This document shows, in pieces, positions 1,243 to 22,290 of a DNA stretch of 64,000 nt. The DNA lies in the NCBI GenBank assembly GCA_029856365.1, contig JAHQWW010000008.1, forward strand, positions 1-64,000. The letters run 5' to 3'. The notes beneath the pieces are model-generated. The model did not search any database, was not told the origin of the DNA, and saw only the letters and a program-made list of their open reading frames with translations. The DNA is from Candidatus Hodarchaeota archaeon (GTDB lineage: Archaea > Asgardarchaeota > Heimdallarchaeia > Hodarchaeales > Hodarchaeaceae). Each line of letters opens with the position of its first letter. Within the stretch, counting starts at the first letter, position 1. The translations under genes and the position numbers were made by a program.

Positions 1243-2718
1243 TTACGCTCTCTCACTAATTCCTGTTGTGTTCTCGGGTCTAGTACGCCTTTTAAACTCA
1301 TAAAACTTCTCTGATAATTCTTGTACTTGCTGAATAATCTCTTGAACGTTTAAAAACATAAATAGATAATCATTAATGAGAATTTTCCCGTTAGAAATCA
1401 CATATCGAATTTCATTACCATTTGCAGCCCAAATCAAATTTTCTACCACATTGTCTAAGCGTGTTGGGGTTAAATTAGGAGCAGAAAGATCAACAACTAT
1501 TATATCTGCTAGTTTCCCTGGTTCTAATGAACCCGTATTAAACCCTAAGATTTGAGCTGGAATTATAGTTATTCGTTCAAGAACATCCTGAGCGGTCATC
1601 AGAGAAGCATCTTGATGAAGAGCTTTTTGATATTGAGCTGCTACGCGAGCAGCGTTAATAATATTTTGATTATCGGCACTTCCAGATCCATCAGTCGAAA
1701 TTGCAAATTCAATCCCTCTTCTTTTGAATTCTTGTATGGGAGGCATACCTGAACCAAGAATAGTGTTTGCTAGAGGATTATGTACAACTTTAGTTTGAGT
1801 TTGGGCTAGAATCTGTAGATCATTGTGCGTAGTATGCACCTGATGAGCAATAAAAGTATTTTCATCGAAAAAGCTAATAGAATGTCCATATTCTACTGGT
1901 GTCATCCTGTATTTTTCTGTGAACCACCTTGTTGTGGCAGATTCTTCACTAGAATGAATATGAATTAAGGAATTGTGGTCTTGAGCCCATTTTTTTAGTA
2001 TTCTTAGAAGTTCTGGTCCATTTGAGAAAAATTGATCAGGTCCAGGAATAATCTTAATATCTACTGAATCTTTATACTTCTCATTTAATTTATCAAGTCT
2101 CTCTACAGCGATTATAGCTGGCTTATCTAGTATTCTTGGGTCATAATGTCGATCTTGTGACCCTACAGCGATCATGATTTTTGTTCCAGCCATTTGGTTT
2201 GCTTCAACTAGTTCATCTACGTGATATTTATTGAAATTGCAATGATGAACCAAAGCAGTAGTTATTCCATGCTGTAGGTCATCTATTCGGGCTTTAAGGT
2301 AAGTTATTAGATAAGGTGACTTGCCAAAATGCTTCGTCAAACTCTCTTCTTCAGAGTGTAAAAAACCTGTAAATAAATTCACTGCTGAATCGAGCCAGGT
2401 AGTTAGGGGAACATCTTTGGCAATTCCAATAATAGGTGATTCGTGATCGTGACCATGGGCTTTAACAAATCCTGGGAGTGCTACTCCATTTATTTGAGGA
2501 ACCTCCCTTTTTTTTATTTCACCTATTGTTGTCCCAATAATCTCAAGTTCTGATCCATACGTATCAATAATTTCCTGACCTCTTTGATCATCGAAGTGAC
2601 CAACTTCTTTAATATGCTGTCCTTCAGTGAGAATGAACCCATCTGTTATTCGAGTATCACGTCCTAATACATTGGAAAGAGGCAAGAGAAATTTAGTTCT
2701 AAGCAATTTATACTTCAT
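1243..2718 (-). CDS. amidohydrolase family protein (MTA/SAH- or guanine-deaminase-like)
   Basis: PGFVKAHGH (HxH), IHIHSSE, VHNPLAN, STDGSGS, GSLEPGKLADI motifs. Start moved to MKYKLL (2718). Confidence 0.85.
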   Translation of the reverse strand: MKYKLLRTKFLLPLSNVLGRDTRITDGFILTEGQHIKEVGHFDDQRGQEIIDTYGSELEIIGTTIGEIKKREVPQINGVALPGFVKAHGHDHESPIIGIAKDVPLTTWLDSAVNLFTGFLHSEEESLTKHFGKSPYLITYLKARIDDLQHGITTALVHHCNFNKYHVDELVEANQMAGTKIMIAVGSQDRHYDPRILDKPAIIAVERLDKLNEKYKDSVDIKIIPGPDQFFSNGPELLRILKKWAQDHNSLIHIHSSEESATTRWFTEKYRMTPVEYGHSISFFDENTFIAHQVHTTHNDLQILAQTQTKVVHNPLANTILGSGMPPIQEFKRRGIEFAISTDGSGSADNQNIINAARVAAQYQKALHQDASLMTAQDVLERITIIPAQILGFNTGSLEPGKLADIIVVDLSAPNLTPTRLDNVVENLIWAANGNEIRYVISNGKILINDYLFMFLNVQEIIQQVQELSEKFYEFKRRTRPENTTGISERA

Positions 2719-2802
2719 TTGTTCACAAACCTGAAACAAGGCTCGATTTATTAAGCGATGTATTTGTATTCTCTGACAATAAGAAAGGAAAAAATATTGA
2801 AA

Positions 2803-2821
2803 AAGTTTGAGCTCCAAACTT
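2803..2821. promoter_or_regulatory. perfect 7-bp inverted repeat in a divergent promoter (possible operator)
   Basis: AAGTTTG-agctc-CAAACTT between the divergent amidohydrolase and dihydropyrimidinase genes. Confidence 0.35.
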
Positions 2822-2883
2822 AGTAAACAAGTAGAAATCTTGAGATTACGAAGTTAATTAATTTTTCATTGGATGAATAAGAA

Positions 2884-4251
2884 TTGGATCTTATTATTAA
2901 GAATGGAACCCTTGTAGATAGCATTAGATGCTATCAGGCAAACTTAGCTATTGCAGAAGGAAAAATTAGGGCTATTTTCCTAGGTAATAAGAACTATAAA
3001 GCAGAAAAAGTTGTTGATGCTGAGAAAAAAATGGTTTTTCCTGGTTTAGTTGATTCTCATGTTCATTTTCAACTTCAAGATATGGGGAAAATCATCTCAA
3101 CTGACAACTTTGCTTCAGGAACAAAAGCTGCTGCCTGTGGAGGAGTGACGACTATAATTGATTTTGCTGATCAAATGCGAGGGGAGTCTCCTCTAAAAAG
3201 CTTTTATGAACGTAAAAAAGATGCAGATTCGCAGGTGGCTATCGACTATAGTCTACATGTCTCAAAGACTGACACCAAATTTCTAGATGAGATTCCGACT
3301 CTTATTTCCGAGGGAGTGACAAGCTTTAAATTTTTCACAACCTATAGCTGGCGAAATCTTGATCTTGATGATGCAGAATTATTAGTTTTGTTTCGTGAGG
3401 TTAAGAAATGTCGAGGAATGGTTATGGGCCATTGTGAAAATGATGACATGGTTATTCGCAACATAAATAGCCTTATTCAGGCAGGAAAAACTGATCCTAT
3501 TTTTCATGCCCATTCACGCCCTCATATTGCAGAGGAAGAAGCTATTCAACGAGTGCTACTTTTTACCAAAAAAACTGGTGTTAAGCTTCATCTAGCTCAT
3601 CTTACTACAAAAGAAGGAAGTGACCTATTATCCCAAGCTAAAAAACAGGGTTTGAATGTCACAGGGGAGACCTGTCCTCACTATTTACTTTTAAATGAGA
3701 GAGAGTACAAAGGTTCAGAAGGATATTTGAATCTGATGTCACCACCTCTTCGTCATGCCAAAGACCAACAAGCATTAATGAAACGAGTGCAAGATGGAAC
3801 AATTGATCAGATCATTACCGATCATTGTGAATTTTCACGTAAGAGTAAAGGAGATGGTAACTTCCCTTTTCATCAAGTTTTAAATGGAATTCCAGGAATC
3901 GAAACCTCCTTGCCCCTTATGCATGATTTTTTAATTAATAAGCAAAAATTAACTTACCCTCAACTAATATCTCTAATGTCAACTAAACCAGCTCAGATAT
4001 TTGGTCTTTATCCTCAAAAAGGGAGTTTGATGGTTGGAACAGATGCTGATCTTGTCATTTTTGATCCAAATGTTGAAAGAACAATCACTCCAGAAATACT
4101 TCATTATTCCATTGATTGGAACCCTTACAGTGGACTGAAGGTTGAAGGATGGCCCGTTATGACCATACTTCGCGGAAAAATTCTTTACGAAAAAGGAAAC
4201 TTTGTTGGGCCGCACAATAAAGGAAAATTTTTGAAATGTTCAATTAGATAG
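2884..4251 (+). CDS. hydA: dihydropyrimidinase/hydantoinase (cyclic amidohydrolase, HyuA-like)
   Basis: PGLVDSHVH, GTKAAACGGVTTIIDF, carbamylatable Lys in TSFKFF, HCEN, ETCPHYL, SPPLR, TDHC. Confidence 0.88.
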   Translation: MDLIIKNGTLVDSIRCYQANLAIAEGKIRAIFLGNKNYKAEKVVDAEKKMVFPGLVDSHVHFQLQDMGKIISTDNFASGTKAAACGGVTTIIDFADQMRGESPLKSFYERKKDADSQVAIDYSLHVSKTDTKFLDEIPTLISEGVTSFKFFTTYSWRNLDLDDAELLVLFREVKKCRGMVMGHCENDDMVIRNINSLIQAGKTDPIFHAHSRPHIAEEEAIQRVLLFTKKTGVKLHLAHLTTKEGSDLLSQAKKQGLNVTGETCPHYLLLNEREYKGSEGYLNLMSPPLRHAKDQQALMKRVQDGTIDQIITDHCEFSRKSKGDGNFPFHQVLNGIPGIETSLPLMHDFLINKQKLTYPQLISLMSTKPAQIFGLYPQKGSLMVGTDADLVIFDPNVERTITPEILHYSIDWNPYSGLKVEGWPVMTILRGKILYEKGNFVGPHNKGKFLKCSIR

Positions 4252-4395
4252 ATATCTGTCGCCAGTGTTAAGATCTTCTGATGTAATAATGGCCTGAATG
4301 GGATTTTAGTAGCCTAGAAATGCTTAATTTTATCAAAATAGAATCCTAGACTTGGTAAAAAATTAATGCTATTTCAATAAAAAAGGTATTTTGAG

Positions 4396-4557
4396 ATGAA
4401 ACATCCAAAACAATCACGAAATGACTTACGTACATGTCCAAATTGTAAAAAATCCTTTGCACTTTCTTATGCTAGAGCCTTCGGATGTAAAGGATGCTCA
4501 CAAAGTTATCTCACTTGCGGTTATGTGAAATGTCCTTTCTGTAGTCATGAATTTTGA
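4396..4557 (+). CDS. small Cys-rich zinc-finger protein (53 aa), not in the ORF track
   Basis: Own translation: MKHPKQSRNDLRTCPNCKKSFALSYARAFGCKGCSQSYLTCGYVKCPFCSHEF*. Three CxxC pairs plus an extra C and H. Confidence 0.75.
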   Translation: MKHPKQSRNDLRTCPNCKKSFALSYARAFGCKGCSQSYLTCGYVKCPFCSHEF

Positions 4558-4564
4558 AAATAAC

Positions 4565-5419
4565 TTAATCCAAATAAAGGGGGGAAATGATTGGTTCAGG
4601 ACGGTGCCACTCATAAATTACATTAGTAGAATGCTTCGTTTGAATCTGGTAATCTGGAAGAGCAGGATTAAATTCCTCAATCTTCAGTATAATATAATTG
4701 ATGTTATGATCTCCTAAGTTGTTCAATGCTACATCAATAGTAACCCAATCCATTTTGGGAGAATAAATCTCTCCCCAGGCATGTGCTTCAACCAATGTTC
4801 CTTGCTTCTGAATATAGTAACCGGTCAATCGTCTACTCGGGATTCCACGTTTTCGTGCTAATGTTATGAAAAGATCTGAAAATTCATCACAATCACCAAT
4901 TTCGGAGAGGTAAGCCTGATAAGCTCCTAATCTTTCTTCTTGAAATTCACAAACTTTAATTTTTGCTCTGATATATTGATAAGCCATTTGTACCCATAAA
5001 GAAAGATCATCTGTACCAAACCATTCATGATCAGACATATTAAAGATGGTCGATGACTTGATAGGCCAGTATTTAGAGCTTTCATTGTATTTTGATTTGA
5101 TAGTTGCAGGAATATCTGATATTTTTCCCCAATCATCTCCTAGGTTAATGAAAGAAGTTGTAGGAAAAATAGAGCTAATCCTATCCAAAGAAATTATCCC
5201 TTTAGTTTGAACTTTCTGCTGAAAAAGGAAAAAAGAATTGATTCCTTTTCTTTTTATTTTACACTGTGAAGGAAATTTATCAATACGCACAGATTGACGA
5301 TAATTAGGATAGTGAAAGAACTTCAAACGAATTGATGGTGAACCAGTCTTAGCCCGATATAACAGTTGCTCCTGATGATGGATTTTCCAACCTGAGATTT
5401 CATGAGACCCATCCATCAT
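4565..5419 (-). CDS. transglutaminase-like domain protein
   Basis: Catalytic triad pattern GDCDEFSDLF...GIPSR...HAWGE...WVTID. Confidence 0.85.
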   Translation of the reverse strand: MMDGSHEISGWKIHHQEQLLYRAKTGSPSIRLKFFHYPNYRQSVRIDKFPSQCKIKRKGINSFFLFQQKVQTKGIISLDRISSIFPTTSFINLGDDWGKISDIPATIKSKYNESSKYWPIKSSTIFNMSDHEWFGTDDLSLWVQMAYQYIRAKIKVCEFQEERLGAYQAYLSEIGDCDEFSDLFITLARKRGIPSRRLTGYYIQKQGTLVEAHAWGEIYSPKMDWVTIDVALNNLGDHNINYIILKIEEFNPALPDYQIQTKHSTNVIYEWHRPEPIISPLYLD

Positions 5420-5506
5420 AAATACCCTTTAATTGTCTCGATTGTGTTTTTGAATCAGAAAAGCTTTAAATAACTTCTTTATTCTCATACAAAGAGTTGT
5501 CTGAAC

Positions 5507-5977
5507 TTGGAAGACGTAATTCAGCGGAAAAACTCCCAAGGGGTCTATATATTAGTTTTTGAAATAGTCCATTCTCTTTTAATTGATATAAGGAGATTCA
5601 AATGGCTGTTGAAACCAGGATTTTATCTTTATTTCGGATCTGCTCTAGGAAAAACCTCAACTTCTTTAGAGAAACGGTTAGCTCGTCATTTTAACAACCA
5701 AAAGAAAATTTTTTGGCATATTGATTATATAACTTCCCAATCAGATGTTAAAATGATTAATGCATATTATACCACGAAAACTGGAATAACTGAATGTTCA
5801 GCTCTCCAGGGATTTGAACAAAACTTCCAAAATACAGAAATTATTTTAAAATTCGGTTCATCTGATTGCAAGACGAAATGTGGAGGCCATTTGGTATTCC
5901 TTTCAAACAATCGGGCTGTTTTGATTGATCTTGCCAATTATTTCAATTTAAGGGGGTGGTTCTTGCACAAGGATTAG
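5507..5977 (+). CDS. GIY-YIG (Uri) superfamily endonuclease, DUF123-like
   Basis: GVYIL...YLYFGSA...RLARH...WHIDY...FGSSDC...CGGHL. Confidence 0.85.
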   Translation: MEDVIQRKNSQGVYILVFEIVHSLLIDIRRFKWLLKPGFYLYFGSALGKTSTSLEKRLARHFNNQKKIFWHIDYITSQSDVKMINAYYTTKTGITECSALQGFEQNFQNTEIILKFGSSDCKTKCGGHLVFLSNNRAVLIDLANYFNLRGWFLHKD

Positions 5978-6202
5978 TTGGTTTGTTCCTTCCCATGTTC
6001 CTTAGGCTTATCTTCATTTCAATGAGTACAAAATCCCTGAGAGGATCTATAAAATTTCACATCATTTTTAAATCAACTTTCTTATTTTAAATTGGTATAA
6101 ATCTTAATCCCATTTTATGATAGTTTAGTCATTTTGTGAATCTAACTCCGCCAAAATTTAATAAATCCTGTATTCTACCAATCTCTAAAGAGAGGTATAA
6201 AA

Positions 6203-7006
6203 TTGCCTTGGCCTTTTAGAAAAAAAAAGAAGAAGAATTTACCTGAACCTCCTTCTTTCTCTAAACAAGAAGATTCACCTTTTTCAGAACCTCCAAAAGA
6301 ATTTCTCCCCCCTCCTTCCCGAGAGATATCGATCCACGAAAGGCCACCAATCCATAAGGTCCCCCCAATCCACGAAGGACCTCCGATTTATGAAGGACCA
6401 CCAAGACAATCACCTCCGACAGATGTTTCCAAGCCTTCAGGCCTCCCGCCACCTCCACCTTTCCCAGGAAAAAGTCCCTCACAACCATCTCTCAGCTCTG
6501 AACAACCCAGTAAAACTCCACTTTTTGATGATGAGATTACAGATGAAATTCATGCTGAATTACGACAAAGAGCTTTTGGATCAAGCATGAGAAAAGTTCC
6601 TGAAAGAAAAGCTGTATCTATATCGACTGAAGAGCTCGCAAAACAACGACTTCGAGCTTCAAAACAAGAATATATTGAAGCAGGTAATAAGCACCTTGAA
6701 TTAAACTTTTTTGATAATGCTGCAATTAATTACGCATGTGCCGTTCTCTGTGATTTAATAGTAGAAGGTTGGCAATCAGCTCGCCAAACAATGTTGAAAT
6801 TAACTTCTAGAATACCCTCCGCGGTTGTGGAGAAGAGCTTTTTTGATAATGTCCGACTTCTACTTGAAGCAATCCGTACGAAGAATTCCACCTTTTTGAC
6901 CCGTGCTGAACAGGCCATACAAAAGAATATGAAACATCTCTACCCAGAAGATGCGGCCATGGTAGAAAAAGCGATAAAAACAGCCAGAACTCACTTTGGA
7001 TATTGA
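6203..7006 (+). CDS. proline-rich protein with polybasic N-terminus, WH2-like motif and helical SNAP/TPR-like C-terminal domain
   Basis: RKKKKK, about 100 aa Pro-rich region including GLPPPPPFPG, EIHAELRQRAFGSSMRKV, then a helical domain. GAGGT SD before the TTG start. Confidence 0.8.
   Translation: MPWPFRKKKKKNLPEPPSFSKQEDSPFSEPPKEFLPPPSREISIHERPPIHKVPPIHEGPPIYEGPPRQSPPTDVSKPSGLPPPPPFPGKSPSQPSLSSEQPSKTPLFDDEITDEIHAELRQRAFGSSMRKVPERKAVSISTEELAKQRLRASKQEYIEAGNKHLELNFFDNAAINYACAVLCDLIVEGWQSARQTMLKLTSRIPSAVVEKSFFDNVRLLLEAIRTKNSTFLTRAEQAIQKNMKHLYPEDAAMVEKAIKTARTHFGY
6332..6403 (+). repeat. 4 x 18-bp coding tandem repeat (IHERPP IHKVPP IHEGPP IYEGPP)
   Basis: atccacgaaaggccacca / atccataaggtcccccca / atccacgaaggacctccg / atttatgaaggaccacca. 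Confidence 0.85.
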
Positions 7007-7020
7007 GCTTTGAAAAATCT

Positions 7021-7060
7021 TTCATTAATATACAAATTATTTCATTAATACACAGATTAT
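7021..7060. repeat. 2 x 20-bp imperfect tandem repeat, intergenic
   Basis: ttcattaatatacaaattat / ttcattaatacacagattat between convergent genes. Confidence 0.6.
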
Positions 7061-7178
7061 TATACCTCAATTTTCCAATATTAAGCATATGGTTTAAGTA
7101 TTAAACACAACACTTAATTTACTCTTCAATTAAAAAATTGGAACAGAAAAATAAATAGCTCAAGCTAATTCCTTGAAA

Positions 7179-8228
7179 TTATAAGCCTCCTATTGTTAAA
7201 GCCATGATGGCTTTTTGCACATGTAAGCGATTTTCTGCAACGTCATAAATGCATGATCTTGATCCTGAGGCGACCTCGTCAGTAACCTCATGCCCTCTAT
7301 CAATTGGCATAGGATGCGTGAAGATTGCATTGTCCGTTAACGCCATTTTCTTTGAATCACAAATCCAATCGGGGTATTTCAGAGCCTTCTCAATTTCTTG
7401 TTCCTTCAAAAATTCTCCGTACTGATAGGCTTGAGGACTCATCCAATGACGTGAATACACCACATGAGCTCCCTCGTAGCCTTTTGTAAGATGATTAGTT
7501 GTTTCAAAATGTGTATCGTTCTTATTGCAGTTCTCTTCTGTCCATTTCAGAATTTGAGAATCTAAATCAAACCCTTCAGGAGAAGCAACTGTAACATCCA
7601 TTCCATACCGGGAACCAATTAACATAGCCTCTTGAACAGAACACCAAGAACGAGCAAGAGCACCATGACCCCATGTAACAAGTAGCTTCTTCCCTTGTAA
7701 AGTTCGCCAATTAGGAGGATATTTGGTACCTTTACTGAACCATTCTGACCAACCCATGACATCTGCAAGTCCTTGACAGGGATGATATTTATCATGGGCC
7801 ATTGAAATGATAGGAATTGTTGCCCACTTAGTATATTCTCGAAGGAGATGATCTCCTTGGCCATATGCTCCAACTTTATCCTCAAGAATTCTAATTCCAA
7901 GACCATGGGCATAACGAGACATTACCTGGGCAGCATCTTCTACTGTTTCCCCCGCGGTCTTCTCAGTTTTAAGACGCATAGCTTTTGGTTCAAGAAATTG
8001 GGCATGTCCTCCAAGTTCTGTAGCAGCAACTTCAAAACTCTGTCTTGTTCGCACACTTGGATTATAAAAAAACATAAAGAATGTTTTATGTTGTAATAAA
8101 CTAGTGTAGTGAGGGGAAAACCGTTCCCGCTTCATTCTCCCTGCTAAATCTAGTACTAAGTCTAATTCATGTTTTTCCCAATCTTGGGTACAAATTAAAT
8201 CTCTTCCATATAAATCTGAAAATTCCAT
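7179..8228 (-). CDS. carbamoyltransferase, OTCase/AOTCase family, atypical
   Basis: SVRTRQSFE, HPCQGLAD, HPMPIDRG, AENRLH. Start moved to MEFSDL (8228) behind an AGGAGG SD. Confidence 0.85.
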   Translation of the reverse strand: MEFSDLYGRDLICTQDWEKHELDLVLDLAGRMKRERFSPHYTSLLQHKTFFMFFYNPSVRTRQSFEVAATELGGHAQFLEPKAMRLKTEKTAGETVEDAAQVMSRYAHGLGIRILEDKVGAYGQGDHLLREYTKWATIPIISMAHDKYHPCQGLADVMGWSEWFSKGTKYPPNWRTLQGKKLLVTWGHGALARSWCSVQEAMLIGSRYGMDVTVASPEGFDLDSQILKWTEENCNKNDTHFETTNHLTKGYEGAHVVYSRHWMSPQAYQYGEFLKEQEIEKALKYPDWICDSKKMALTDNAIFTHPMPIDRGHEVTDEVASGSRSCIYDVAENRLHVQKAIMALTIGGL

Positions 8229-8247
8229 CTTAAGTAGCCTCCTATTC

Positions 8248-9234
8248 TTACGGAATAATAGTGGTTCCTGCTTCTCCATCTAGAGCTGCTGCTGCAAGTT
8301 CAGGGGTGGTTATAACAACTTTTTTCCCTCCATCCTTTAAGAATCGAATTGCAGCTTTTAATTTAGGCCCCATCGATCCTTTTAACTTCTCTCCAAACGC
8401 TCCTTCTGCTAAATACTTTTCAACCTCTACCACAGTCATTCTGTCAATACCAGTCTGCTGTGATGTCTTATAATTCAAATAAACTTTATCTGTATCAGTC
8501 AATATAGCAAATGCTTCCGCTTTCGTATCAATTGCTAATCTCTCTCCAGCTAAATCTTTATCAATAACAGCTTCAACACCTGTAACTGTTCCATCGGGAT
8601 TTTTAATAACAGGGATACCTCCTCCGCCACTGGCAACTAAAATAAAACCAGCTTCTAATAAATCATTAACCTGATCCTTTTCATAAATTTCAATTGGATC
8701 TGGTGATGGGACAACTCGACGATACCCCCTTCCAGCATCTTCAATGATAGTAAAATCAGGATGTTCTTCTTTAATCCGATCAGCCTGTTCACTTGTGTAA
8801 AAAGGCCCGACAGGTTTTGTTGGATTTTGAAACGCTGGATCACCTTGGGACACAACTACTTGTGTAATAATCGTTGCAACTTTGATCTTTTTACTAGGAT
8901 CCAACCGACTAGGAGGACCCTCAGTCAGTAATAAATTTCCAAGGATATTCTGAATGAGATACCCGATCTGTCCTTGGGTCATGGCCACCGCGATATCGTC
9001 AGGCATAACAGGGCGATTATATGGCGAATGAGAACCAGCTTCCATTTGTAACATAAGGTTCCCCACCTGAGGGCCATTACCATGAGTTATCACAATTCTC
9101 CATTTTGGAATGACCTTCATTATTTGTCTTGTGGTTTCTGTGACATTTTCGATCTGTTCCTCTATTGTCCCTCTCTGTTTCCCCTTAATCATGGCATTTC
9201 CACCAAGTGCAATGACAACTAGTGGCTTAAGCAT
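8248..9234 (-). CDS. arcC: carbamate kinase
   Basis: VIALGGNA, ITHGNGPQVG, PTKPVGPFY, YRRVVPSP, GGGGIPV, EAVIDKD, GSMGPK. Confidence 0.95.
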   Translation of the reverse strand: MLKPLVVIALGGNAMIKGKQRGTIEEQIENVTETTRQIMKVIPKWRIVITHGNGPQVGNLMLQMEAGSHSPYNRPVMPDDIAVAMTQGQIGYLIQNILGNLLLTEGPPSRLDPSKKIKVATIITQVVVSQGDPAFQNPTKPVGPFYTSEQADRIKEEHPDFTIIEDAGRGYRRVVPSPDPIEIYEKDQVNDLLEAGFILVASGGGGIPVIKNPDGTVTGVEAVIDKDLAGERLAIDTKAEAFAILTDTDKVYLNYKTSQQTGIDRMTVVEVEKYLAEGAFGEKLKGSMGPKLKAAIRFLKDGGKKVVITTPELAAAALDGEAGTTIIP

Positions 9235-10341: not shown

Positions 10342-10407
10342 TCAATGCATAATACACACCATGATTCCCTTTTAAGCACGTAACCTATTTTCAGCTTGAT
10401 CAAAAAT
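10342..10407 (-). repeat. degenerate copy of the last 66 bp of the carbamoyltransferase gene at 12740-13804
   Basis: 60/66 identical to 12740-12805. Encodes IFDQAENRLRA*KGIMVCIMH* versus IFDQAENRLHAQKGIMVCIMH*. Confidence 0.92.
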
Positions 10408-10529
10408 AGCTTATTCTAACGTGTGAAAATCTATGAGGGGTAACATCCGAAAGGTTATCGATAATCGTTATTGTATCCAGGGGGAGACCAGCACAAAGTC
10501 TAAATCTTATTTTTCGAGAAATGAAATAA

Positions 10530-10548
10530 TAGGATCTAACAGATCCTA
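10530..10548. promoter_or_regulatory. 8-bp inverted repeat upstream of the radical SAM gene
   Basis: TAGGATCT-aac-AGATCCTA. Confidence 0.35.
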
Positions 10549-10654
10549 GTAAAATTGTAAACAAAGGTCAGAACAGGTTTTTTTCTTTTTGCCTTAAGAA
10601 ACATATTTATCAAGAGTCAATAATTCTTTGGATCAAGATAGAGGTAAAATTATA

Positions 10655-12691
10655 ATGGGTCCTCAAAGAACCATCCTTTTACTTAATGCAAGCAATCTCA
10701 AGACTGCGTTGATGTATCCTTACGCTTTCGTGCAAGTTTCAGAGATTGCAGACAGGTTTAACATTCGGACTATCTGTAATGACATGTACGGGATTTCAGA
10801 AAACCAATGGGAGGTTTATCTTCAGAAGTTACTCAAAAAAGAACCCTTTGATATGATATTAATTACCTTGAGAAACACTGACTGTGTGGACGTAAATGAT
10901 TATCGGTACCATCCTAAAAACACTAATTACCACAAGTCTATTGTTTTTCAATCGCCTGAACAAAGGTCTTACTATCCAATCCAAGCTACGAAACTCTTAA
11001 TTCAAGTTCTTCGCAAACTAACTGATGTGCTTATTGTCATTGGAGGATATGCTTTTTCTGTTATGCCAGAAAGGCTGATGAATTACCTCAACCCTGATTA
11101 TGGCGTGATTGGAGGGCCTGACGCCTTTTTTGAACATTTTGAAGATGTTCTTGGTAGACAGAATTTAACTCAGATTGCTAACCTAATTTATTCTCAAGCA
11201 AAGACTCTCCAAAAGGGGCCTTCCCGGTTCTTTCCTCCTTCTTTCCGTCAAGAATATACAGACAAGATCATAAAAGACCGACAGGCATTCTATTCTAGGT
11301 TTTCAGGGGAAAATGTGGAGCTTAGCGTTTCCATAGAAGTGTCTCGGGGTTGCCCAATGAATTGTTCACCTTGCTCAGAACCCTTGGTTGAGGGGAGAAA
11401 GGTACAATACCGAGATTTAGACGTGATCGAAGATGAAATCAACTTTCTTAGGAAGTATCAGCTGAATCAACTGTTTTTCATATGTTCTGAAATTAATGCT
11501 GATGGTAATGAGTTTGTCATGAATCTTGCAGATCGGATAATTGAAATTAACGAAGAGAGGAAGGATTATGAGAAAGTATCTTGGTATGGGCTGCATCTTT
11601 TGACTCTCTCGGCTGATCAATTAAAACACATCAGAAAAGCGGGTTTTCGTGGAGATTTCAATCCACTCCCTGTTGTTTCTCTTGATGATCATAATCTTGC
11701 AGCAATTAAAGCTCCACTAAAGAGTGATGATATCATCAATTTTTTTACTCAAGCAAAAAAAGTGGTTAAAGAAGAGTTCAGACACATCGGGAAGAAATTT
11801 TTTTCCTTGGAGGAACGAATATTCAGAGCTCCCCAATCTTTGAACCCTGAGGATTTTATGAATTCTTGGAATATCTTTCTTGGCAACATTGAATCTACTT
11901 CTGAGACTATCCGTGTCACACTAAAACGTGCTGATGATGCTGGACTTAACCAACTCTTTGACTCTTGTTATGTTAATAAAGCGACAAGAATTTACGATTT
12001 TATACGACCAACGGAGGAAGTGTTAAAACATACTTGGTCGTTAATCAATGGGGTAATCAAAAATTCATACAATGAACTCTATCCCTCGTTTACATATCCT
12101 CCAGCTCTTTTACGTCACTTTGGGAGTGCGGAAACTTTAGATGAGTTCTTTGTTTTAGTTGGAGATACTTACCTCTCTCGAAAACATCTCTTCAAAAAAG
12201 ATTGGAATTGGTTTCTGGCTACTAATCTTGATCCTGGAACTTTCTTGTCTTGGTGGATTTCTGCAATTAAGTCTGAGCTAGCTTTCAATAGCCTTACTGC
12301 GATACCCGAGGTTCTGAAATTCCTTACTTTCCTGCGAAATAGTCCTTCAATAGGTAATATCAAACTACTTTTCAATCCAACACCAGGTAGAAAGAGCCTA
12401 ATAAATTTTGCAACCAATATAGCTATCCAGTTTGTCTTATTTTCCCAAGAAAAAAAACTTGTTCCAATCATGCAACGTCTTGGCTTACCTCCCCTTAAAA
12501 CTACTCTGAATCTTTCCCCCTATAAATTTGCGGTGAAACTCTTTGAACACTATTCAAACAAGGATGAATTGTTTTCTGTCGTAAATGATAGTTCATTCAA
12601 CGGTGCTCTCTTTAGCTTCTTTGTTGAATACTTGCTATATCTCAAGAACACTCCCCTCAGCGATGAATTTCAGATATTTTTTAGTCACTAG
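10655..12691 (+). CDS. B12-binding-domain radical SAM protein
   Basis: SRGCPMNCSPC (CxxxCxxC); N-terminal cobalamin-binding-like region (ITLRNTD, IVIGGYAFS, PDYGVIG). ATG at 10655 follows GAGGT. Confidence 0.8.
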   Translation: MGPQRTILLLNASNLKTALMYPYAFVQVSEIADRFNIRTICNDMYGISENQWEVYLQKLLKKEPFDMILITLRNTDCVDVNDYRYHPKNTNYHKSIVFQSPEQRSYYPIQATKLLIQVLRKLTDVLIVIGGYAFSVMPERLMNYLNPDYGVIGGPDAFFEHFEDVLGRQNLTQIANLIYSQAKTLQKGPSRFFPPSFRQEYTDKIIKDRQAFYSRFSGENVELSVSIEVSRGCPMNCSPCSEPLVEGRKVQYRDLDVIEDEINFLRKYQLNQLFFICSEINADGNEFVMNLADRIIEINEERKDYEKVSWYGLHLLTLSADQLKHIRKAGFRGDFNPLPVVSLDDHNLAAIKAPLKSDDIINFFTQAKKVVKEEFRHIGKKFFSLEERIFRAPQSLNPEDFMNSWNIFLGNIESTSETIRVTLKRADDAGLNQLFDSCYVNKATRIYDFIRPTEEVLKHTWSLINGVIKNSYNELYPSFTYPPALLRHFGSAETLDEFFVLVGDTYLSRKHLFKKDWNWFLATNLDPGTFLSWWISAIKSELAFNSLTAIPEVLKFLTFLRNSPSIGNIKLLFNPTPGRKSLINFATNIAIQFVLFSQEKKLVPIMQRLGLPPLKTTLNLSPYKFAVKLFEHYSNKDELFSVVNDSSFNGALFSFFVEYLLYLKNTPLSDEFQIFFSH

Positions 12692-12739
12692 AGTTTAGTT
12701 ATATACTAATTCAAAAAGATGAGAGAATTATACTTCCAT

Positions 12740-13804
12740 TTAGTGCATAATACATACCATGATTCCCTTTTGAGCATGTAACCTATTTTCAGCTTGATCA
12801 AAGATGATGGATCGTGGTCCGTCAGCAACTTCATCTTCCACTTCCATTCCTCGATCTTGTGGCAAACAATGCATGTAGTACCCTCGTCCCTTCTTGGTTA
12901 CATCCATTAATTCTACTGTTGTTTTCCATTGCTTGTATTTATTCATGATCTCTGGCATGATTTCAGGTTTAGCGGGTCTGACACCCTCAATTCCATGAGC
13001 CTCTAAAACCCCCCAGCTCTTGGGATAGACAAAATCTGCCTCTTCAAAAGCGGTTTTCATATCCCGTTCAATTTGAAATGTCCCTCCATAGAGGTCGCAA
13101 TGGTCTTCTACTTTTTTGATGATATTGGGATCAAGATCAAATTCTGGTGGACAAGCAAACGTTACATCCATACCAAACATAGAAGGCGCAAGTACTCCTG
13201 TTTGTGGTACTGCCATTGGTTTTTGACCTGCGGAATACGCCCAGCTCATAACAAATTTCTTTCCTTGCAATTTATTGAAATCATGACTGCATTTCTCATA
13301 AATGGTCATAATATCTGCCATTCCTTGACAGGGATGGTACACATCTGATTCCATATTAATGATAGGCTTTTTACTCCAATAAGCAAAGTTTTCTTGGATT
13401 TTCTGTCCTTTGCCATAGATCCAATTGCATTTATCCCCGTATATACGTATAGCAATGGCATCTCCCATCCTTGATAACACCCTGGAAACATCTGAGACGC
13501 GTTCAGTTTCATAAGCGATTTCATCACCAGGTAGAGCTGGTGTGTATATAGCCCCTGGCTGTAAGAAGTGCGCATGTCCTCCAAGTTGAGTCATTCCAGC
13601 TTCAAATGAATTTCGTGTTCGTAGGCTATCATTATAAAAGATCATAAATAAAGTACGGCCAGGTAATATATGGCGATGATCTTCATGTATAGTAAAACGC
13701 TTTTTGAGGTCCATTCCAACATTCAGGAATGTTTCGATTTCTTCACGTGTGAAATCAATCATAGTAAGAAAGTCTCGGCCTTTCAAATCTTCAGTTACTA
13801 CCAT
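12740..13804 (-). CDS. knotted carbamoyltransferase, YgeW-like
   Basis: SLRTR, HPCQ, MSWAYS..QKPMAVPQ, VYPKSW, YMHCLP. These match recalled YgeW motifs (WAYSPSYGKPLSVPQ, VYPKSW, HCLP) better than canonical ArgF. Confidence 0.8.
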   Translation of the reverse strand: MVVTEDLKGRDFLTMIDFTREEIETFLNVGMDLKKRFTIHEDHRHILPGRTLFMIFYNDSLRTRNSFEAGMTQLGGHAHFLQPGAIYTPALPGDEIAYETERVSDVSRVLSRMGDAIAIRIYGDKCNWIYGKGQKIQENFAYWSKKPIINMESDVYHPCQGMADIMTIYEKCSHDFNKLQGKKFVMSWAYSAGQKPMAVPQTGVLAPSMFGMDVTFACPPEFDLDPNIIKKVEDHCDLYGGTFQIERDMKTAFEEADFVYPKSWGVLEAHGIEGVRPAKPEIMPEIMNKYKQWKTTVELMDVTKKGRGYYMHCLPQDRGMEVEDEVADGPRSIIFDQAENRLHAQKGIMVCIMH

Positions 13805-16146: not shown

Positions 16147-16386
16147 TTAATTCTTTAGTCACTTGGAAGCTCATTTTATTTTTAAAATATCACAGAAATA
16201 TTTCTTTTTTTCTTATTATTATAATCCATCTTACCTTATTGATCTTTTTTGCCACTTTCTATCCCTATAAATATTATAGTGTAATAAACGTCAACAAAAC
16301 TGTAAAAGTTCATATTCATCACCCTAGATTTTATAGCTCATTATTACTATTCAAATCAAAATATGTTTCTTTTATCTGGTGATTTC

Positions 16387-19300
16387 ATGAATATTTCCAC
16401 AATTAAGGATAAAGATAACTTTGAAGGTATAATCCGTCCGATTAATACAATTGTTGATTCAAAAAAATTAGTAGAATTTTTCAATGCAATTGATGATTTA
16501 TGGCCAGGGACATAGACTCAAGGAATCAAGTATGATGAAAAACGAGCACGAGAATTCATTGAAAAAAGGAAAGCTCTTGAATGGTTTGTTGCTTTCGATC
16601 CCCAAGATCGTTTAGTCGGTATCTGCTCTGTTCATAACCGCATGGAAGAACCTAATGTTTCATACATTGGTATTTTAGGTGCCCATCCTGAAGTATTAGG
16701 CAAAAAATATGGTAAACATCTACTCCTCACAGCAGTTGATTTTAGTGTAAAAAATGGGGATGTACGGCAAGATCTGCATACTTGGCCATCAAATATGAAA
16801 GCTGTACCCCTTTATAAGAAGATTGGCCTTCAATGGGTTCCCGAAACATCAGTATATATGCAGAATTACATTCCTGTTATTTTACAAAACTCCTTCTGTA
16901 AACCATTTTTTGATAAACATCCTGATTGGTACCTAAATCAGAAGCGTGAAATCACACAAGCGCCTGATGAGCAGACCTTAGGGTCTATGAAAGTTTTTTA
17001 TTATCGGTTTGAAAAAGAGGCAGATTTTCTTGAAGTTATTATTGATCGTTACAGCCGATCCATTACTAGTATTACCAGAAGAATGAACGATGAATTAATC
17101 GGAATAACTATGCAACAAAAAGATCATGATGTCTTTGCTGGAATTAAACAAAATACCTCTTTACTCATAAGGAATGAATCCAATAAAGAGCTATCTGTTA
17201 TTGTATCTATGGAGGGGTCTAAGGAAATCAGTGTAAAAGCAAGTCAAGAAATTCTAACAGTTCCCAAGGGAACTAAGATACTTGAAAATACCTATATTGT
17301 TGATGATATAACTTCTGATACTGATATCCAGAGAAAAACTCCCAGCATTAAAAGTCGAATTATTGTAGATGGAGAAGTTGTTACATTGGAAGCAGGTATG
17401 AGAGTTCGTCAGCTTATTGATATCAAGATATCAGATCAGGTTTGGTGGAGGCCTTCTGGTAAGCAAGATATACCAATACACATACAAAATAGGTCAGAGA
17501 AGACCATTGAAGGAGAATTATTATTCTGGTCAATTAATAAGATTGATATTCTCACTCCTATTATTCCTATTAGTCTTGATCAGGAAGAGAATGTTGGTGT
17601 CAATGTTCAACTAGAAATTCCCTTAAAGAATAATGATATTTTTACGACTATATATTGTCAGATTAAAATGAGGAACATTAAAAGTAGAGTATTTGAGCTC
17701 CCTATTTTCCTTTCTGATAACCCAGGATTATCTGCTGGTATACAACAAGACAAAAAGTCTGTAATCATCCAAAACCAATATATTCATGGTGTTATAAAAT
17801 TAGAGGGAGCTAGTGCTGATTTTCGTACTCCTGATGAAACTTTAATGGGAATAGGAGTTCGTACACTTGATTACGGACCTCCATTTGGTTTTAGCGAATT
17901 TAATCAGGCTGAATTCAGCCCAAAAATAATAGAAAAAGAAAATTCTATTCAGGTTAAACTTTCTAGGAGAGGAAATTCAAAGAGGGAGTTGATTTTTCAT
18001 CGAATTTTTGAATTGAAGGCAGGAGACCCCTATTTTGCAACATGGACGGAAGTACAAAACTTAGGAACTGTAGATGACCAAATTACTACGATTTTAGAGC
18101 CTCATTTCACCCATGGTATAAACATGCCTCTTGGTGAAACCTATTTTGTTTTTGATGACCAGCTTATTCATGGGCCTGCTTTTCTCTGGCCAGCTGGAAA
18201 AGGAGATTTACCTGAAGGAACTGAAAGGTATGAACCTTGGATTTGCATGCAGGTTGGAGATTTCAGTTACTATCATGTTTATGAGGTTCATGACACTAAA
18301 GCGGATCCTGGCCGTAGTAAATTATCATCTCTTGAAAAACAGATCCAAATCCCAGCTCTTTCCTCGTCTAGAGGGCCAAAGAGCTGGATTGGTTGTGGAG
18401 ATATAGATTGGAAGAGAGTTCGCGCATTAGCATATTATTTGAGTAAAAATCAAGTATTATCTCCAATTCAGCAAAAAATTAAACCTATATCATATCTTAA
18501 TATCGATGTTCCCAGAAACCAACTACTTATTGGGGGAAAAATATCAGTAATCCAGATTACTCTAAGATCAATTCGATTAATGCCTTTAAATGGTCGATTA
18601 ATCATTGAGACACCGAAAAGATGGACAATTACTCCTAATGAATTTGAAATCACTAATTTAAACTTAAATAATCCCCAAGAGTATAAATGCAAGCTAGAAT
18701 TGCCAAATAATGTTACCTTTGGAATTTACAAATTGCAATTTATCATACAGAGTCCTGAGAAAAGAGAAACTAATCATATTCGATTTTTAGTCTTTAATGA
18801 TTCCGAAAAACCTGAAATTCTTGATCTCCCACCGGAATCAAACAAGAATCTGGTCTTAGTAAGAAATAAAGTTCTTAAGATTAAAAGTTCAGCTGATTTT
18901 GCAGCTTGTCTTACTCAAATACAGTATAACGGAGAACCTTATTTACTTTCAAATTTTCCTAATTATTCTCCATCGATCTTTTTCTCGAAGGATCCTGGTG
19001 GGATGGTTAATTCTATTATTCTAGGTGAAAATGATGATTTGGACGAATCAAACTATACCAAAGAGAAATTTATAGCTAGGAAGATCCAATCAGATCACTG
19101 GTCAGGAGTTGAATATTCAGCAACAATCCATGAACAAAAGTCATTAAAGGGTTTGGTTATGAAAATCGCATATGAATTATTAGGAGGAGACTCAAGTTTA
19201 GTTCGGGTTCGAACAACGATTCATAATCCAACTTCAACAACATTTCGAGCCACATCATTTAGTTTATTAAGTCCAGGAATTGATGGAAGTATAGAGAACA

Positions 19301-19617
19301 TGGTTTCGAGATTTTCTATTGGCACTGAAACTCCTTTTCAATTTTCGAGAGCCAATCCCGGTCTTATAATTGGAGTCGGATCAGAGGATTTGACCTATTT
19401 AACATTGGAAAAAAATAATAACTCCGTTTCCCTTATTAAGATTTCTTCAAGATCTAAAATAATCCCTCTTGATGTAGGTAAGATGATCCTCGGAGCTGGT
19501 TTTGTTACATTTTGGTATTTAGAGCCCAACCAAACTGATGAAGTTTCCTACTTTATTTCCCTGAACAGCAAAGAGGAATTTCTAGAGGATTTATCCCACT
19601 TTTTTTGTGAATGCTAG
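16387..19617 (+). CDS. large GNAT N-acetyltransferase with C-terminal beta-rich domains; in-frame TAG at codon 43
   Basis: GGTGA SD + ATG 16387 in frame with ORF 16642. TAG at 16513-16515 in DDLWPGT*TQG. GNAT motifs HPEVLGKKYGKHLL and NMKAVPLYKKIG. Confidence 0.75.
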
Positions 19618-19627
19618 TGAAAAATAC

Positions 19628-20896
19628 TTAACTAACTTTAAGGTTATTATTCAATAGGGATTGAAGTTCAGAAATACGAGGAAAAATGGGAGGGGGGAGT
19701 GATATCTGCTGGAATAAGACTTTAGGATCTTTAAATCCGACACCAGTTATAGGTATGACTACTCGATCTGATCGATCAATCTCTCCCATTTCAACTAACA
19801 CTTCAAGACCAGCGATTCCTGCGGTCCCTGAAGGTTCACCGAAAATTCCTTCATATTGTGCTAACCATCGTTGGGTTCTGAGAATAGATTCCTCTGATAC
19901 AGCAACTGCGGTACCAGAACTATCATAAATGGCAGCTAAAGCAGAGTCAGCATCCCAAGGATGAGGATCAGCAAGCCCTCCTGCTACGGTATGGGGAGTT
20001 CTCTTCCAGTCTTGTAATTCTAATGGAGGAGAGTTCCTTTTCACTCCTTTAACAATTGGTGCACACTCCTCAGGTTGGACTGCAACATGATGAGGAACAG
20101 AAGATATGAAATCAAGCTTTTCAAATTCTTTGAATCCTCTATGAGTTCCTGCTAATAAACCTCCACTACCAGTAGCTAAAAGCACCCAATCAGGCGGCTC
20201 CCAATCAAATTGTTCACAGAGTTCAAAACCAAGACTTTTTGTGCCTTCAAATTGAAAAGGATTAAAGGGACCAAAAGAAGGGGAGGGTATCCATCCAAAT
20301 GCTTCATAAGACTTTTGGAAGAGTGTTACTGATGGATCTTGACCTTGCACTACCTCCTTAACCCTAATTACTGTAGCTCCTAAATATGCTAGTTGGGATA
20401 ATTTTCCTTCGGTCGCGTGTTCAGGTACAAAGACAACAACTTTTTTTCCCGCTCTCGCACCATAAGTCGCTAATGCTGCGGCCGCATTTCCAGATGAGGC
20501 GGCAGTTAAGACTTTGGCGTTTAATTCGACCCCTTTGGAAACCCCAATAGAAATCGGCCTATCTTTAAAGCTTCCTGAAGGATTCCCTGTTTCTACTTTA
20601 AAAAATAAATTTTTTAATCCAAATTTTTCTTTTCCCAAACGATGAGACAATAAGAGAGGCGTTCCTCCACCTCCAAGATCAACGATGTTTTTATAATTTC
20701 TTATAGGAAAAAATTCTCTATATCGCCAATGAGTGAATGGTCTTTGCTGTAACTTTTCCTTTGTAACTAAATCGTGTAATTCTTCATAATTGAAGTTTAT
20801 TCGTAAGCGGAACCCACAACCACACCTTTCAGTCAAAAATTGCTCTTCTAACACCGATTTGGCACACTTTGGACATATTAAATTAGGATCATACAC
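19628..20896 (-). CDS. thrC: threonine synthase-like PLP enzyme (fold type II)
   Basis: N-terminal CxxC…CxC, NPSGSFKDR (PLP Lys), SSGNAA, GSGGLL, EPSG, ITGVGFK. Confidence 0.8.
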   Translation of the reverse strand: MYDPNLICPKCAKSVLEEQFLTERCGCGFRLRINFNYEELHDLVTKEKLQQRPFTHWRYREFFPIRNYKNIVDLGGGGTPLLLSHRLGKEKFGLKNLFFKVETGNPSGSFKDRPISIGVSKGVELNAKVLTAASSGNAAAALATYGARAGKKVVVFVPEHATEGKLSQLAYLGATVIRVKEVVQGQDPSVTLFQKSYEAFGWIPSPSFGPFNPFQFEGTKSLGFELCEQFDWEPPDWVLLATGSGGLLAGTHRGFKEFEKLDFISSVPHHVAVQPEECAPIVKGVKRNSPPLELQDWKRTPHTVAGGLADPHPWDADSALAAIYDSSGTAVAVSEESILRTQRWLAQYEGIFGEPSGTAGIAGLEVLVEMGEIDRSDRVVIPITGVGFKDPKVLFQQISLPPPIFPRISELQSLLNNNLKVS

Positions 20897-20934
20897 AGTT
20901 AAAACCGCGCCATCTTAATAAAACTTGTTTTATC

Positions 20935-22290
20935 TTAAATTTGTCTCGCAATTCTGGGAGTGAGATCTAACCGCTCCCAAAGAGAGATTGCAGAATCCAT
21001 TGACTGTTGACTAACCATCGTTGCATCGAGAGAAGTATGAGTGCGGTTTTTTACGACAGTTTTCCCATTTACAATGACCCGTTTGATGTCTTTTCGTGAG
21101 AAAGAGCCATAAACAAGATGACTATAGACATTTCCTTCATGGATCGGTGTAGGTAAGGCGGACGCGTCTAATATTGTAAAATCTGCTGCTTTACCTTTAT
21201 CGATGGATCCAATCTGATCTCTCAATCCGATAGCTTGTGCTGCATTTATAGTAATCATTTGTACTACTTGAAGGGGAGTTGGAAGTTGACTAGGATTACG
21301 ATGGTTCAACTTATGCATGAGATAGGCAGTTCTCATATTTTCAATCGCATCATAGATAAAACCATCATTACCAACACCAATGTTTACCCCTTTCTGCAAC
21401 ATTTCAGGAAGTTTAGCTACCCCAACCGCGTTCAATTCATTACTTTTTGGATTATGAGCCACACTAGTACCTGTTTCAGCGATGAGGTCGATTTCGTGGC
21501 CGTTAATATGAACAGCATGAGCTAAGGCAGTTTTCGACCCGAGAAAACCTTCATCATAGAGTCGTTCAACTGTTCGTTTCCCATATTTCTCTAGGTTATG
21601 ATGAAGACCTATCAAACCTTCTGAAGTATGCATTGTTTTGAAAGAGTCAGTTTTCGCAGCATACTCAACAGTTTTGTGAATTAATTCATCTGATACTGTA
21701 AAGGATGCATGTAAACAGTAAATCCCATTAACCAGAGTTTTTTCAGGATCGTTATGTGAAATAAAACGAAGATTTTCCTCTAATCCTTTTACCCCTTCTT
21801 CATAACTACGACGTTCTGTGGCTTCAAAACAAATTACTCCACGAACACCAACATCTTGTGTAGCCTTTGAAATACGATCTAGTGACCCTTCAATGGAATT
21901 TGGACCTGAATAGGTATCTAAATAAGCAGTTACTCCATTTAAAGCTAATTCATAAACCGCATATAGTGCTGAAGTATAAGCATCGCCCAATGTAAGAGCC
22001 TCGTCCATTGTCCACCATATACGTTGCAAATTCTGTGTGAAATCAGTAGGAGGATCAATAAGAAGTGGAGCACCCCTTAATAGTGCTGAATAGAGATGAG
22101 TATGAGCACAAATAAAACCTGGAAACACAACTTGGTCTGAGCAATCAATAACTGTGTCAACATTATCAGTAATATCTTTTTCAACCTTAACTATCTGGCC
22201 ATCCTCCACCAAAACATTTCCTTGGGATATGACTTCATTATTTGCATTCATTGTCACAATTAATCCATTTTTGAGTAACAGACGTTCCAT
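20935..22290 (-). CDS. SsnA-like amidohydrolase
   Basis: PGFICAHTHLYSALLRG…DFTQNLQRIWWTMDEAL, LHASFTVSD, HNPKSNELNAVG. Start moved to MERLLL. Confidence 0.85.
   Translation of the reverse strand: MERLLLKNGLIVTMNANNEVISQGNVLVEDGQIVKVEKDITDNVDTVIDCSDQVVFPGFICAHTHLYSALLRGAPLLIDPPTDFTQNLQRIWWTMDEALTLGDAYTSALYAVYELALNGVTAYLDTYSGPNSIEGSLDRISKATQDVGVRGVICFEATERRSYEEGVKGLEENLRFISHNDPEKTLVNGIYCLHASFTVSDELIHKTVEYAAKTDSFKTMHTSEGLIGLHHNLEKYGKRTVERLYDEGFLGSKTALAHAVHINGHEIDLIAETGTSVAHNPKSNELNAVGVAKLPEMLQKGVNIGVGNDGFIYDAIENMRTAYLMHKLNHRNPSQLPTPLQVVQMITINAAQAIGLRDQIGSIDKGKAADFTILDASALPTPIHEGNVYSHLVYGSFSRKDIKRVIVNGKTVVKNRTHTSLDATMVSQQSMDSAISLWERLDLTPRIARQI

Follow-up and report, generated by a model that had tools for sequence, protein, structure and literature searches.

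The window analysed here is a 64,000-nucleotide stretch of DNA from Candidatus Hodarchaeota archaeon, an Asgard archaeon of the order Hodarchaeales (assembly GCA_029856365.1, contig JAHQWW010000008.1, positions 1 to 64,000; contig C94 of this 4.24-Mb genome, which has an estimated completeness of 83.6%). Seven genes spread over 21 kb in the window are candidates for a purine-ureide catabolic set. A first-pass annotation, made from the letters alone, had read them as an archaeal counterpart of the ygeW/hyuA/yqeA/ssnA cluster for anaerobic purine-ring degradation. Scoring with Pfam and NCBIfam profiles found all seven at the coordinates and with the types that it had given (scores are shown against model cut-offs), and a repeat search added one further feature:

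1243-2817, minus strand: AH1, a deaminase-type amidohydrolase (Pfam Amidohydro_1, deaminase/chlorohydrolase type)
2884-4251, plus strand: D-hydantoinase/dihydropyrimidinase, a HyuA-like cyclic amidohydrolase (TIGR02033, 430.5 > 393.25)
7179-8279, minus strand: CTase-A, a carbamoyltransferase (Pfam OTCace_N and OTCace; no NCBIfam cut-off passed)
8248-9234, minus strand: carbamate kinase (TIGR00746, 360.4 > 358.25)
12740-13804, minus strand: CTase-B, a second carbamoyltransferase (Pfam OTCace_N and OTCace; no NCBIfam cut-off passed)
19628-20896, minus strand: ThrC-like fold-type-II pyridoxal phosphate (PLP) enzyme (Pfam PALP; NF006050, 291 < 303)
20935-22326, minus strand: SsnA-like amidohydrolase (best NCBIfam model SsnA, 372 < 444)
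10346-12805, no strand: putative insertion, outside the pathway (62-nucleotide direct repeat around a B12-radical-SAM gene at 10628-12691)

The genes form a loose set and not one operon, because unrelated genes lie between them: a transglutaminase-like gene, DUF123, a proline-rich protein, a thioesterase, the B12-radical-SAM gene, TrmB, a methyltransferase and a 991-residue protein. The earlier description as a cluster therefore holds for co-location, which is conserved across phyla as described below, and fails for a single operon. Tight linkage was confined to three pairs: the carbamate kinase gene, whose 3′ end abuts or overlaps CTase-A; the SsnA-like and ThrC-like genes; and AH1 with the hydantoinase, which are divergent. 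The copies of the 62-nucleotide repeat, at 10346-10407 and 12744-12805, are 94% identical, and one of them is the live 3′ end of CTase-B. In G021, a genome of the same genus, CTase-B, carbamate kinase and CTase-A follow one another directly on a single strand, with neither the radical-SAM gene nor the thioesterase gene between CTase-B and the kinase. Because the repeat brackets the radical-SAM gene, this gene was apparently inserted at the 3′ end of CTase-B, splitting a module of CTase-B, kinase and CTase-A. Small open reading frames at 538, 14168, 24697 and 25170 had no match in Pfam. A scan of the window for sigma-70 promoters and terminators gave chance-level results, the sigma-70 model being inapplicable to archaea.

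Databases label the families of both carbamoyltransferases ornithine transcarbamylase (OTC) or N-acetylornithine transcarbamylase (AOTC). The best NCBIfam model for each was AOTC (NF003384), at 233 for CTase-A and 263 for CTase-B against a cut-off of 288, and both scored far below the YgeW models (NF005538, 102 and 150 against 453; TIGR03316, 100 and 142 against 500). The genome holds a bona fide OTC on contig C36 (TIGR00658, 421 > 281), and A and B are therefore extra copies. A tree of 135 carbamoyltransferases resolved three clades: one with CTase-B (80 rows, SH-aLRT 99), one with CTase-A (43 rows, SH-aLRT 93) and a third that joins E. coli YgeW to the type of G038, G040 and L107, found in a sister family that we call f3 (SH-aLRT 97). 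References for AOTC, SOTC, PTC and UGTCase were compared through hidden Markov model (HMM) and PDB scores and motifs instead of through this tree, and the relation of A and B to AOTC was judged from those motifs, from HMM scores and from gene context. The proposed counterpart of ygeW was thus correct in being non-canonical and apart from OTC (SH-aLRT 93 and 99) and did not stand as an orthologue, the clades being separate. Neither A nor B is a YgeW orthologue or a canonical OTC, and no ArgB, ArgC or ArgH gene was found near any of the 80 B-family loci that we fetched.

The motifs refine this picture. The carbamoyl-phosphate site is intact in both families (S-x-R-T-R, H-P-x-Q and D-R, with HPCQ in CTase-A), and their second-substrate motifs differ between the families and are invariant inside each. 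The YgeW-type motifs that the first-pass annotation had read in CTase-B (WAYS..KP.VPQ, VYPKSW and HCLP) are real: the protein, like E. coli YgeW, has SWAYS..QKPMAVPQ, VYPKSW and HCLP, and the CTase-B family has WAYS..KP.AVPQ, YPK[AS]W and HCLP[AQC]DRG. The YgeW second-substrate signature (WAYS..KP..VPQ, YPKSW and H[AVC]LP.DRG) is accordingly found in CTase-B and not in CTase-A, which has R-x-W for K-x-W and H-[PCV]-M-P for HCLP; Table 1 of Barba et al. has no family with R-x-W and H[PCV]MP. The same authors give HP[TMF]Q for the YgeW type, and CTase-B has HPCQ. The nearest solved structure to both proteins is the AOTC of Xanthomonas campestris (PDB 3kzc/3kzk; about 182-190 bits), which shares HPCQ with A and B, and K-S-W and HCLP with B. 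In place of its WTYHPKPLNTAVAN and HCLPLRR, CTase-B has WAYS..KP.AVPQ and HCLP.DRG, and the pocket signature of CTase-B is that of the YgeW type and not that of AOTC. Also unlike AOTC, A and B score under the AOTC cut-off, have no arginine-biosynthesis context and adjoin a catabolic carbamate kinase.

The likely start of CTase-A is Met18 at 8228. Its AlphaFold model (pLDDT 86.7) superposed best on AOTC 3kzk (TM 0.86-0.90) and not on aspartate transcarbamylase (ATCase); we rejected an ATCase origin for this family because HMM scores and the fold search both led to AOTC/OTC. The model of CTase-B was not used (pLDDT 74, with the carbamoyl-phosphate domain under 50). Proteins of Anaerolineae (Chloroflexota) share 73-79% identity with CTase-A, far more than any bacterium shares with CTase-B or the kinase, and this suggests a recent transfer between the two domains.

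Carbamate kinase makes ATP from carbamoyl phosphate and ADP. The enzyme of the window also passes NF009007 (342 > 266) and is 40% identical to E. coli YqeA. The set resembles the arginine deiminase (ADI) pathway of ADI, catabolic OTC and carbamate kinase, in that phosphorolysis of a ureido group would give carbamoyl phosphate and then ATP through the kinase. It differs in that A and B are not OTCs and in that no ADI gene was found within the window. The earlier statement that ADI is missing is true of the window only: the genome holds two short ADI-like genes (308-310 residues) and an arginase-like gene besides the canonical OTC, on contigs C36, C199 and C117. Agmatine deiminase was looked for and not found in the genome, and E. 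coli ArgB, ArgC and ArgH queries had no match there. The OTC may be catabolic and use the kinase of the window. Since ADI-like genes are present and ArgB, ArgC and ArgH are unmatched, the kinase may also serve a citrulline route, which would explain its persistence in G001, a genome of the genus that is without A and B.

One alternative is that the seven genes are unrelated neighbours. The kinase and transferases would then act in citrulline, acyl-ornithine or polyamine metabolism by an ADI-like route, the hydantoinase in pyrimidine turnover, the SsnA-like protein and AH1 as nucleoside deaminases, and the ThrC-like enzyme in making threonine. We consider this quite unlikely. Unrelated genes do stand among the seven on both strands, a kinase is kept in two genomes, G001 and G016, that lack A and B, the OTC and ADI-like genes could use the same kinase, and the database names of A and B are OTC or AOTC. 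Against it, the loci of the B family carry no arginine genes, the genome has a housekeeping ThrC and a deaminase of the methylthioadenosine (MTA) type separate from the window copies, and both the tight clustering of the same gene types in distant archaea and bacteria and their joint presence or absence within the genus, described next, argue for a common function.

A scan of one genome per species yielded at least 593 B-family genes, of which 80 loci were fetched and the B-family gene was recovered in 79. We counted neighbours within 8 kb of that gene by tblastn (79 loci, one per species); the counts are lower bounds because many loci end at contig ends:

A-type carbamoyltransferase: 45 loci, 13 phyla
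Carbamate kinase: 41 loci, 11 phyla
CysK-like PLP protein of about 490 residues: 22 loci, 8 phyla
ThrC-like PLP protein: 15 loci, 6 phyla
Xanthine dehydrogenase (Xdh) molybdenum subunit: 14 loci, 5 phyla
SsnA: 14 loci, 8 phyla
Hydantoinase: 8 loci, 6 phyla
YgfK: 5 loci, 3 phyla
UacX-like reductase: 5 loci, 4 phyla

This co-location is far beyond chance, given that carbamate kinase, present once per genome, lies near B in 41 of 79 species. The module of B, A and kinase occurs in at least 11-13 phyla, near SsnA, Xdh, YgfK or UacX, hydantoinase, ThrC-like and CysK-like genes, with examples in bacteria (L069, L078, L084 and L101), Desulfurococcaceae (L085) and other Asgard archaea (L065, L070 and L105). 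The L069 locus reads YqeC, Xdh, SsnA, B, A, kinase, CysK-like, ThrC-like, XdhC, XdhB and YgfK, and L085 holds A, B, kinase and SsnA-like, UacX-like and ThrC-like genes. Conservation of the co-location reaches far past close relatives, to other Asgard archaea, Desulfurococcaceae, Bathyarchaeia and many bacterial phyla. Among 150 genomes sampled from the phylum of the window, 44 have the B family, concentrated in three families. One apparent conserved neighbour was discarded: a 389-residue protein in 20 loci (for example L036:2530-3699) is an antisense reading frame over the carbamoyltransferase in high-GC bacterial genomes.

The sister family f3, of the same class (G038, G028 and G024, the first two closed genomes), has a compact cluster of another kind (L023, G038:C1:3162000-3181999; also L024 and L026). 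It contains MocA, Se-XDH (TIGR03311, 894 > 830), YgeY (630 > 321), a YgeW-type carbamoyltransferase, hydantoinase, SsnA, a UacX-like reductase, a ThrC-like gene and the small subunit of Xdh. By its gene content, this cluster appears to be a second, different archaeal version of the pathway.

Two side observations concern related loci. In G040, a protein that passes the ATCase model (262 > 237; L025:3062-4018) lies directly upstream of a YgeW-type transferase and carbamate kinase, and may be a pseudo-ATCase serving as second transferase in a convergent solution. In L065, L070 and L105 (Promethearchaeota and Hermodarchaeota), a group comprising an AOR-family (tungsten-type) oxidoreductase, a small Fe-S protein and a UacX-like reductase adjoins two amidohydrolases, B, A and a ThrC-like gene; the oxidoreductase could be an alternative first redox step.

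The SsnA-like protein scored under both SsnA cut-offs (NF005540, 372 < 444; TIGR03314, 345 < 455.5), with SsnA 126 bits ahead of the next family (246). We placed it in a tree together with the genome's deaminase of the MTA/S-adenosylhomocysteine type, with which it might have grouped. It fell with E. coli SsnA in a clade of 17 rows (SH-aLRT 99), on an archaeal sub-branch (SH-aLRT 99) that is sister (93) to the bona fide SsnA group. The paralogue on C43 (MTA/5′-deoxyadenosine-deaminase type), those on C124 and C154, AH1 and GuaD all lay outside this clade. The hydantoinase is 36.7% identical to E. coli HyuA over 460 residues; the model that it passes, TIGR02033, does not separate HyuA from pyrimidine-pathway enzymes. 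Its homologues adjoin SsnA in G038 and G028.

The ThrC-like enzyme scored just under TIGR00260 (166.8 < 167.1) and is not the sole ThrC-type copy, as a housekeeping ThrC lies on C131 (524 > 303, against 291 for the window copy). Genes of its type stand beside SsnA and carbamoyltransferases in G038, L065, L070, L085, L092, L069, L078 and L101. This paralogue of threonine synthase is a candidate replacement for YgeX.

The place of AH1 in the pathway is uncertain. It scored far under every NCBIfam cut-off and belongs to a well conserved, uncharacterised family of about 490 residues, with homologues 58-62% identical in Eremiobacterota, Riflebacteria and other Heimdallarchaeia. Database gene models begin about 26 codons later (498 residues), and the true start is probably near 2739. 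The pairing with the hydantoinase was seen in Hodarchaeales only, and no strongly conserved AH1 neighbour was found outside that order; elsewhere, 80 AH1 loci had a CDA-fold deaminase in 11, Xdh in 7, CysK-like in 6-7 and ThrC-like genes in 5.

Within the genus, A and B are both present in 16 of 21 genomes, and the SsnA-like gene is likewise found in 16 of 21. Two genomes, G001 (94% complete) and G016 (90%), keep in one neighbourhood PLD, methyltransferase, TrmB, DUF123, a carbamate kinase that has diverged, the transglutaminase-like gene and the 991-residue gene. Both lack orthologues of all six catabolic genes (AH1, the hydantoinase, CTase-A and CTase-B, and the ThrC-like and SsnA-like genes), and of the ThrC type they have the housekeeping copy only. 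The six genes thus behave as a unit on a shared backbone, and their joint absence was probably a single event.

Other parts of the known pathway were sought in the rest of the genome. A YgeY-family hydrolase was found on C21 (486 > 321), and it occurs in all five same-genus genomes tested. It stands tail to tail with, and 9 bases from, a class-III aminotransferase of the diaminobutyrate or gamma-aminobutyrate type (C21:1098-3685; L005), which may provide a route for a diamino or beta-amino acid product. Several Xdh sets were also found: four sets of this family lie on C50, C66 and C160, and C50 also carries MocA and a YqeB-like gene. Of the Xdh sets, the best one shares 38.7% identity with XdhD, and its top HMM was XdhA (616 < 780, scored on a truncated piece). 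A CysK-like PLP protein of 491 residues (C102:11684-13159; L109:7685-9160) matched no curated family and is 68% identical to the protein of the G038 cluster; its gene stands alone beside histidyl-tRNA synthetase and glycogen synthase. The search for a YgfK- or UacX-type reductase had a different outcome. Neither in this genome nor in five of the same genus was one found, PF01180 returning PyrD only and TIGR03315 GltD-like parts only. YgfM was not found in the genome, which has nine luciferase-like genes.

A substrate that needs no dearomatising reductase would account for this result: allantoin or allantoate, environmental hydantoin, or N-carbamoyl amino acids derived from dihydropyrimidines. 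The hydantoinase would open the ring, the transferases would phosphorolyse the ureido groups and the kinase would make ATP, leaving the SsnA-like protein and AH1 as accessory ring-opening or deaminating enzymes. YgfK and UacX were not found in the genus genomes searched, the hydantoinase passes a generic D-hydantoinase/dihydropyrimidinase model, and Rubrobacter offers a precedent in the phosphorolysis of allantoate by a carbamoyltransferase beside carbamate kinase (PMC4016543). Yet across phyla the module of B, A and kinase accompanies the genes that mark the reductive urate route: SsnA, Xdh, and YgfK or UacX. In addition, scores with the allantoinase models were under their cut-offs (283-292), the conserved pair of SsnA-like and ThrC-like genes would be left without a role, and the nine luciferase-like genes leave room for a non-homologous reductase such as that proposed for Chloroflexota. 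We regard a reductase-independent substrate as unlikely overall; it stays a live rival, with allantoate as an example, since no YgfK- or UacX-type enzyme to make the reduced ring was found in the genus genomes searched.

In E. coli and Clostridium, ring opening falls to SsnA for the reduced purine and to HyuA for the hydantoin. YgeW then phosphorolyses one ureido group of 2,3-diureidopropanoate and YqeA makes ATP; the second ureido group is cleaved hydrolytically by YgeY, and YgeX releases pyruvate (bioRxiv 10.1101/2025.04.24.650524, 10.1101/2025.05.19.654654; PMC12990295). By analogy, and from the gene content and neighbourhoods described above, we think it probable that AH1, the hydantoinase, A, B, the ThrC-like and SsnA-like enzymes and the carbamate kinase make up a purine-ureide catabolic set that conserves energy through carbamoyl phosphate. 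The SsnA-like enzyme would open the six-membered ring of a reduced dioxopurine, and the hydantoinase would open the ureido-hydantoin to give 2,3-diureidopropanoate. CTase-B, at the YgeW step, and then CTase-A would each remove one ureido group with phosphate, and the kinase would turn each carbamoyl phosphate into ATP, so that a ring could yield as many as two ATP where E. coli gains one. The ThrC-like enzyme, possibly with the CysK-like enzyme of C102, would convert diaminopropionate to pyruvate and ammonia in place of YgeX. The analysis itself shows what the genes are, how the clades divide, which neighbourhoods are conserved and that the genes are present or absent jointly. What we infer is the substrates, the order of the steps, that both transferases are active and how much ATP results; the choice of urate or another ureide is among these inferred points because YgfK/UacX and YgeX were not found in the genus. 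A more specific and general version, that in Hodarchaeales, many other archaea and many anaerobic bacteria B removes the 3-ureido and A the 2-ureido group for two ATP per ring, with the ThrC-like and CysK-like enzymes finishing the skeleton, is put forward tentatively, as a possibility that we would not favour at even odds.

It is also conceivable that only one transferase acts on a pathway intermediate, the other being regulatory or structural (for example in a mixed trimer) or serving a different branch, with one ATP per ring. Such an arrangement would fit the retention of a YgeY-family hydrolase here and in each of the five same-genus genomes tested, and also the distant M20 hydrolase found between B and A at some Bipolaricaulota loci. 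As to whether CTase-A might take the place of YgeY, a good YgeY homologue was present in two of the 79 B-family loci, one with A and one without. We judge a single active transferase very unlikely, because every carbamoyl-phosphate-binding motif is conserved in both families, each with its own invariant second-site residues, and because YgeY is unlinked and is present in G001, which has neither A nor B.

Several points weigh against a purine-ureide set. The SsnA-like protein falls under the SsnA cut-off and on an archaeal side branch. A and B are not YgeW orthologues, and their nearest solved structure is an AOTC. The Xdh, YgeY and CysK-like genes lie on other contigs without a visible link to the window, YgfK and UacX were not found in this genome or in the five same-genus genomes, which are near-complete (G009 is closed), and no YgeX homologue was found in the genome at E < 1e-5. 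The joint loss in G001 and G016, of genes lying close together, was probably one event, and the genome is only 83.6% complete. Set beside these, the purine or ureido reading of the first-pass annotation gained support from the carbamoyltransferase clades, the neighbourhoods, the SsnA grouping, the joint absence in G001 and G016 and the f3 cluster.

Comparison with known systems places the set as a variant. The reductive urate (2,8-dioxopurine) cluster of E. coli and Clostridium sporogenes comprises xdhD-ygfM/xdhAC, ygfK, ssnA, hyuA, ygeW and yqeA, along with ygeY and ygeX. The archaeon shares with it an amidohydrolase of the SsnA clade, a hydantoinase of the HyuA type and a carbamoyltransferase with carbamate kinase, as well as Xdh-family and YgeY-family genes elsewhere in the genome. 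It differs in having two carbamoyltransferases of non-YgeW clades, a ThrC-like enzyme (with the CysK-like one) in the place of YgeX, no YgfK found, genes dispersed over several contigs among unrelated ones, and an archaeal host.

Other variants indicate that the reductase and ureido-cleaving steps are exchangeable, and a UacX-type reductase stands beside SsnA-like genes in G038, L085 and L065. In Clostridioides difficile, the hydrolase UacY, partner of UacX, replaces YgeW and the kinase (bioRxiv 10.1101/2025.05.19.654654), so that the ureido-cleaving step yields no ATP; the proposed second phosphorolytic enzyme of the window would be a change in the opposite direction. Li et al. proposed an F420-type luciferase-like reductase for Chloroflexota (bioRxiv 10.1101/2025.05.19.654654), the phylum whose Anaerolineae have the close relatives of CTase-A. 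That study scored any PF00185 protein as YgeW and did not mention archaea.

The ureidoglycine carbamoyltransferase Rxyl_2847 of Rubrobacter xylanophilus likewise adjoins carbamate kinase and is proposed to phosphorolyse a diureido catabolite, allantoate (PMC4016543). It is a pseudo-ATCase with the motif HPLA (PMC4016543), unlike the AOTC/OTC-like A and B; an ATCase-type paralogue is found beside the YgeW-type gene in G040.

The anaerobic urate pathway, solved in 2025, was termed restricted to bacteria in a commentary (PMC12990295). We found no paper on an archaeal or twin-transferase version, and the studies that worked the pathway out deal with bacteria alone. Our analysis places a probable variant of the urate pathway in Asgard archaea, in the order thought closest to eukaryotes, and shows two families routinely annotated as OTC or AOTC to be parts, with carbamate kinase, of a catabolic module. 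Should both transferases act as proposed, the ATP yield from the purine ring would double, which would matter for energy-starved anaerobes of sediments. A culture paper takes the Xdh of Hodarchaeales to make urate that acts as an antioxidant in oxygen tolerance (bioRxiv 10.1101/2025.02.26.640444). Purine fermentation is an alternative to that view that can be tested, since cultured Hodarchaeales strains exist; if it is true, the role of Xdh in these closest known relatives of eukaryotes would lie in the fermentation of purines.

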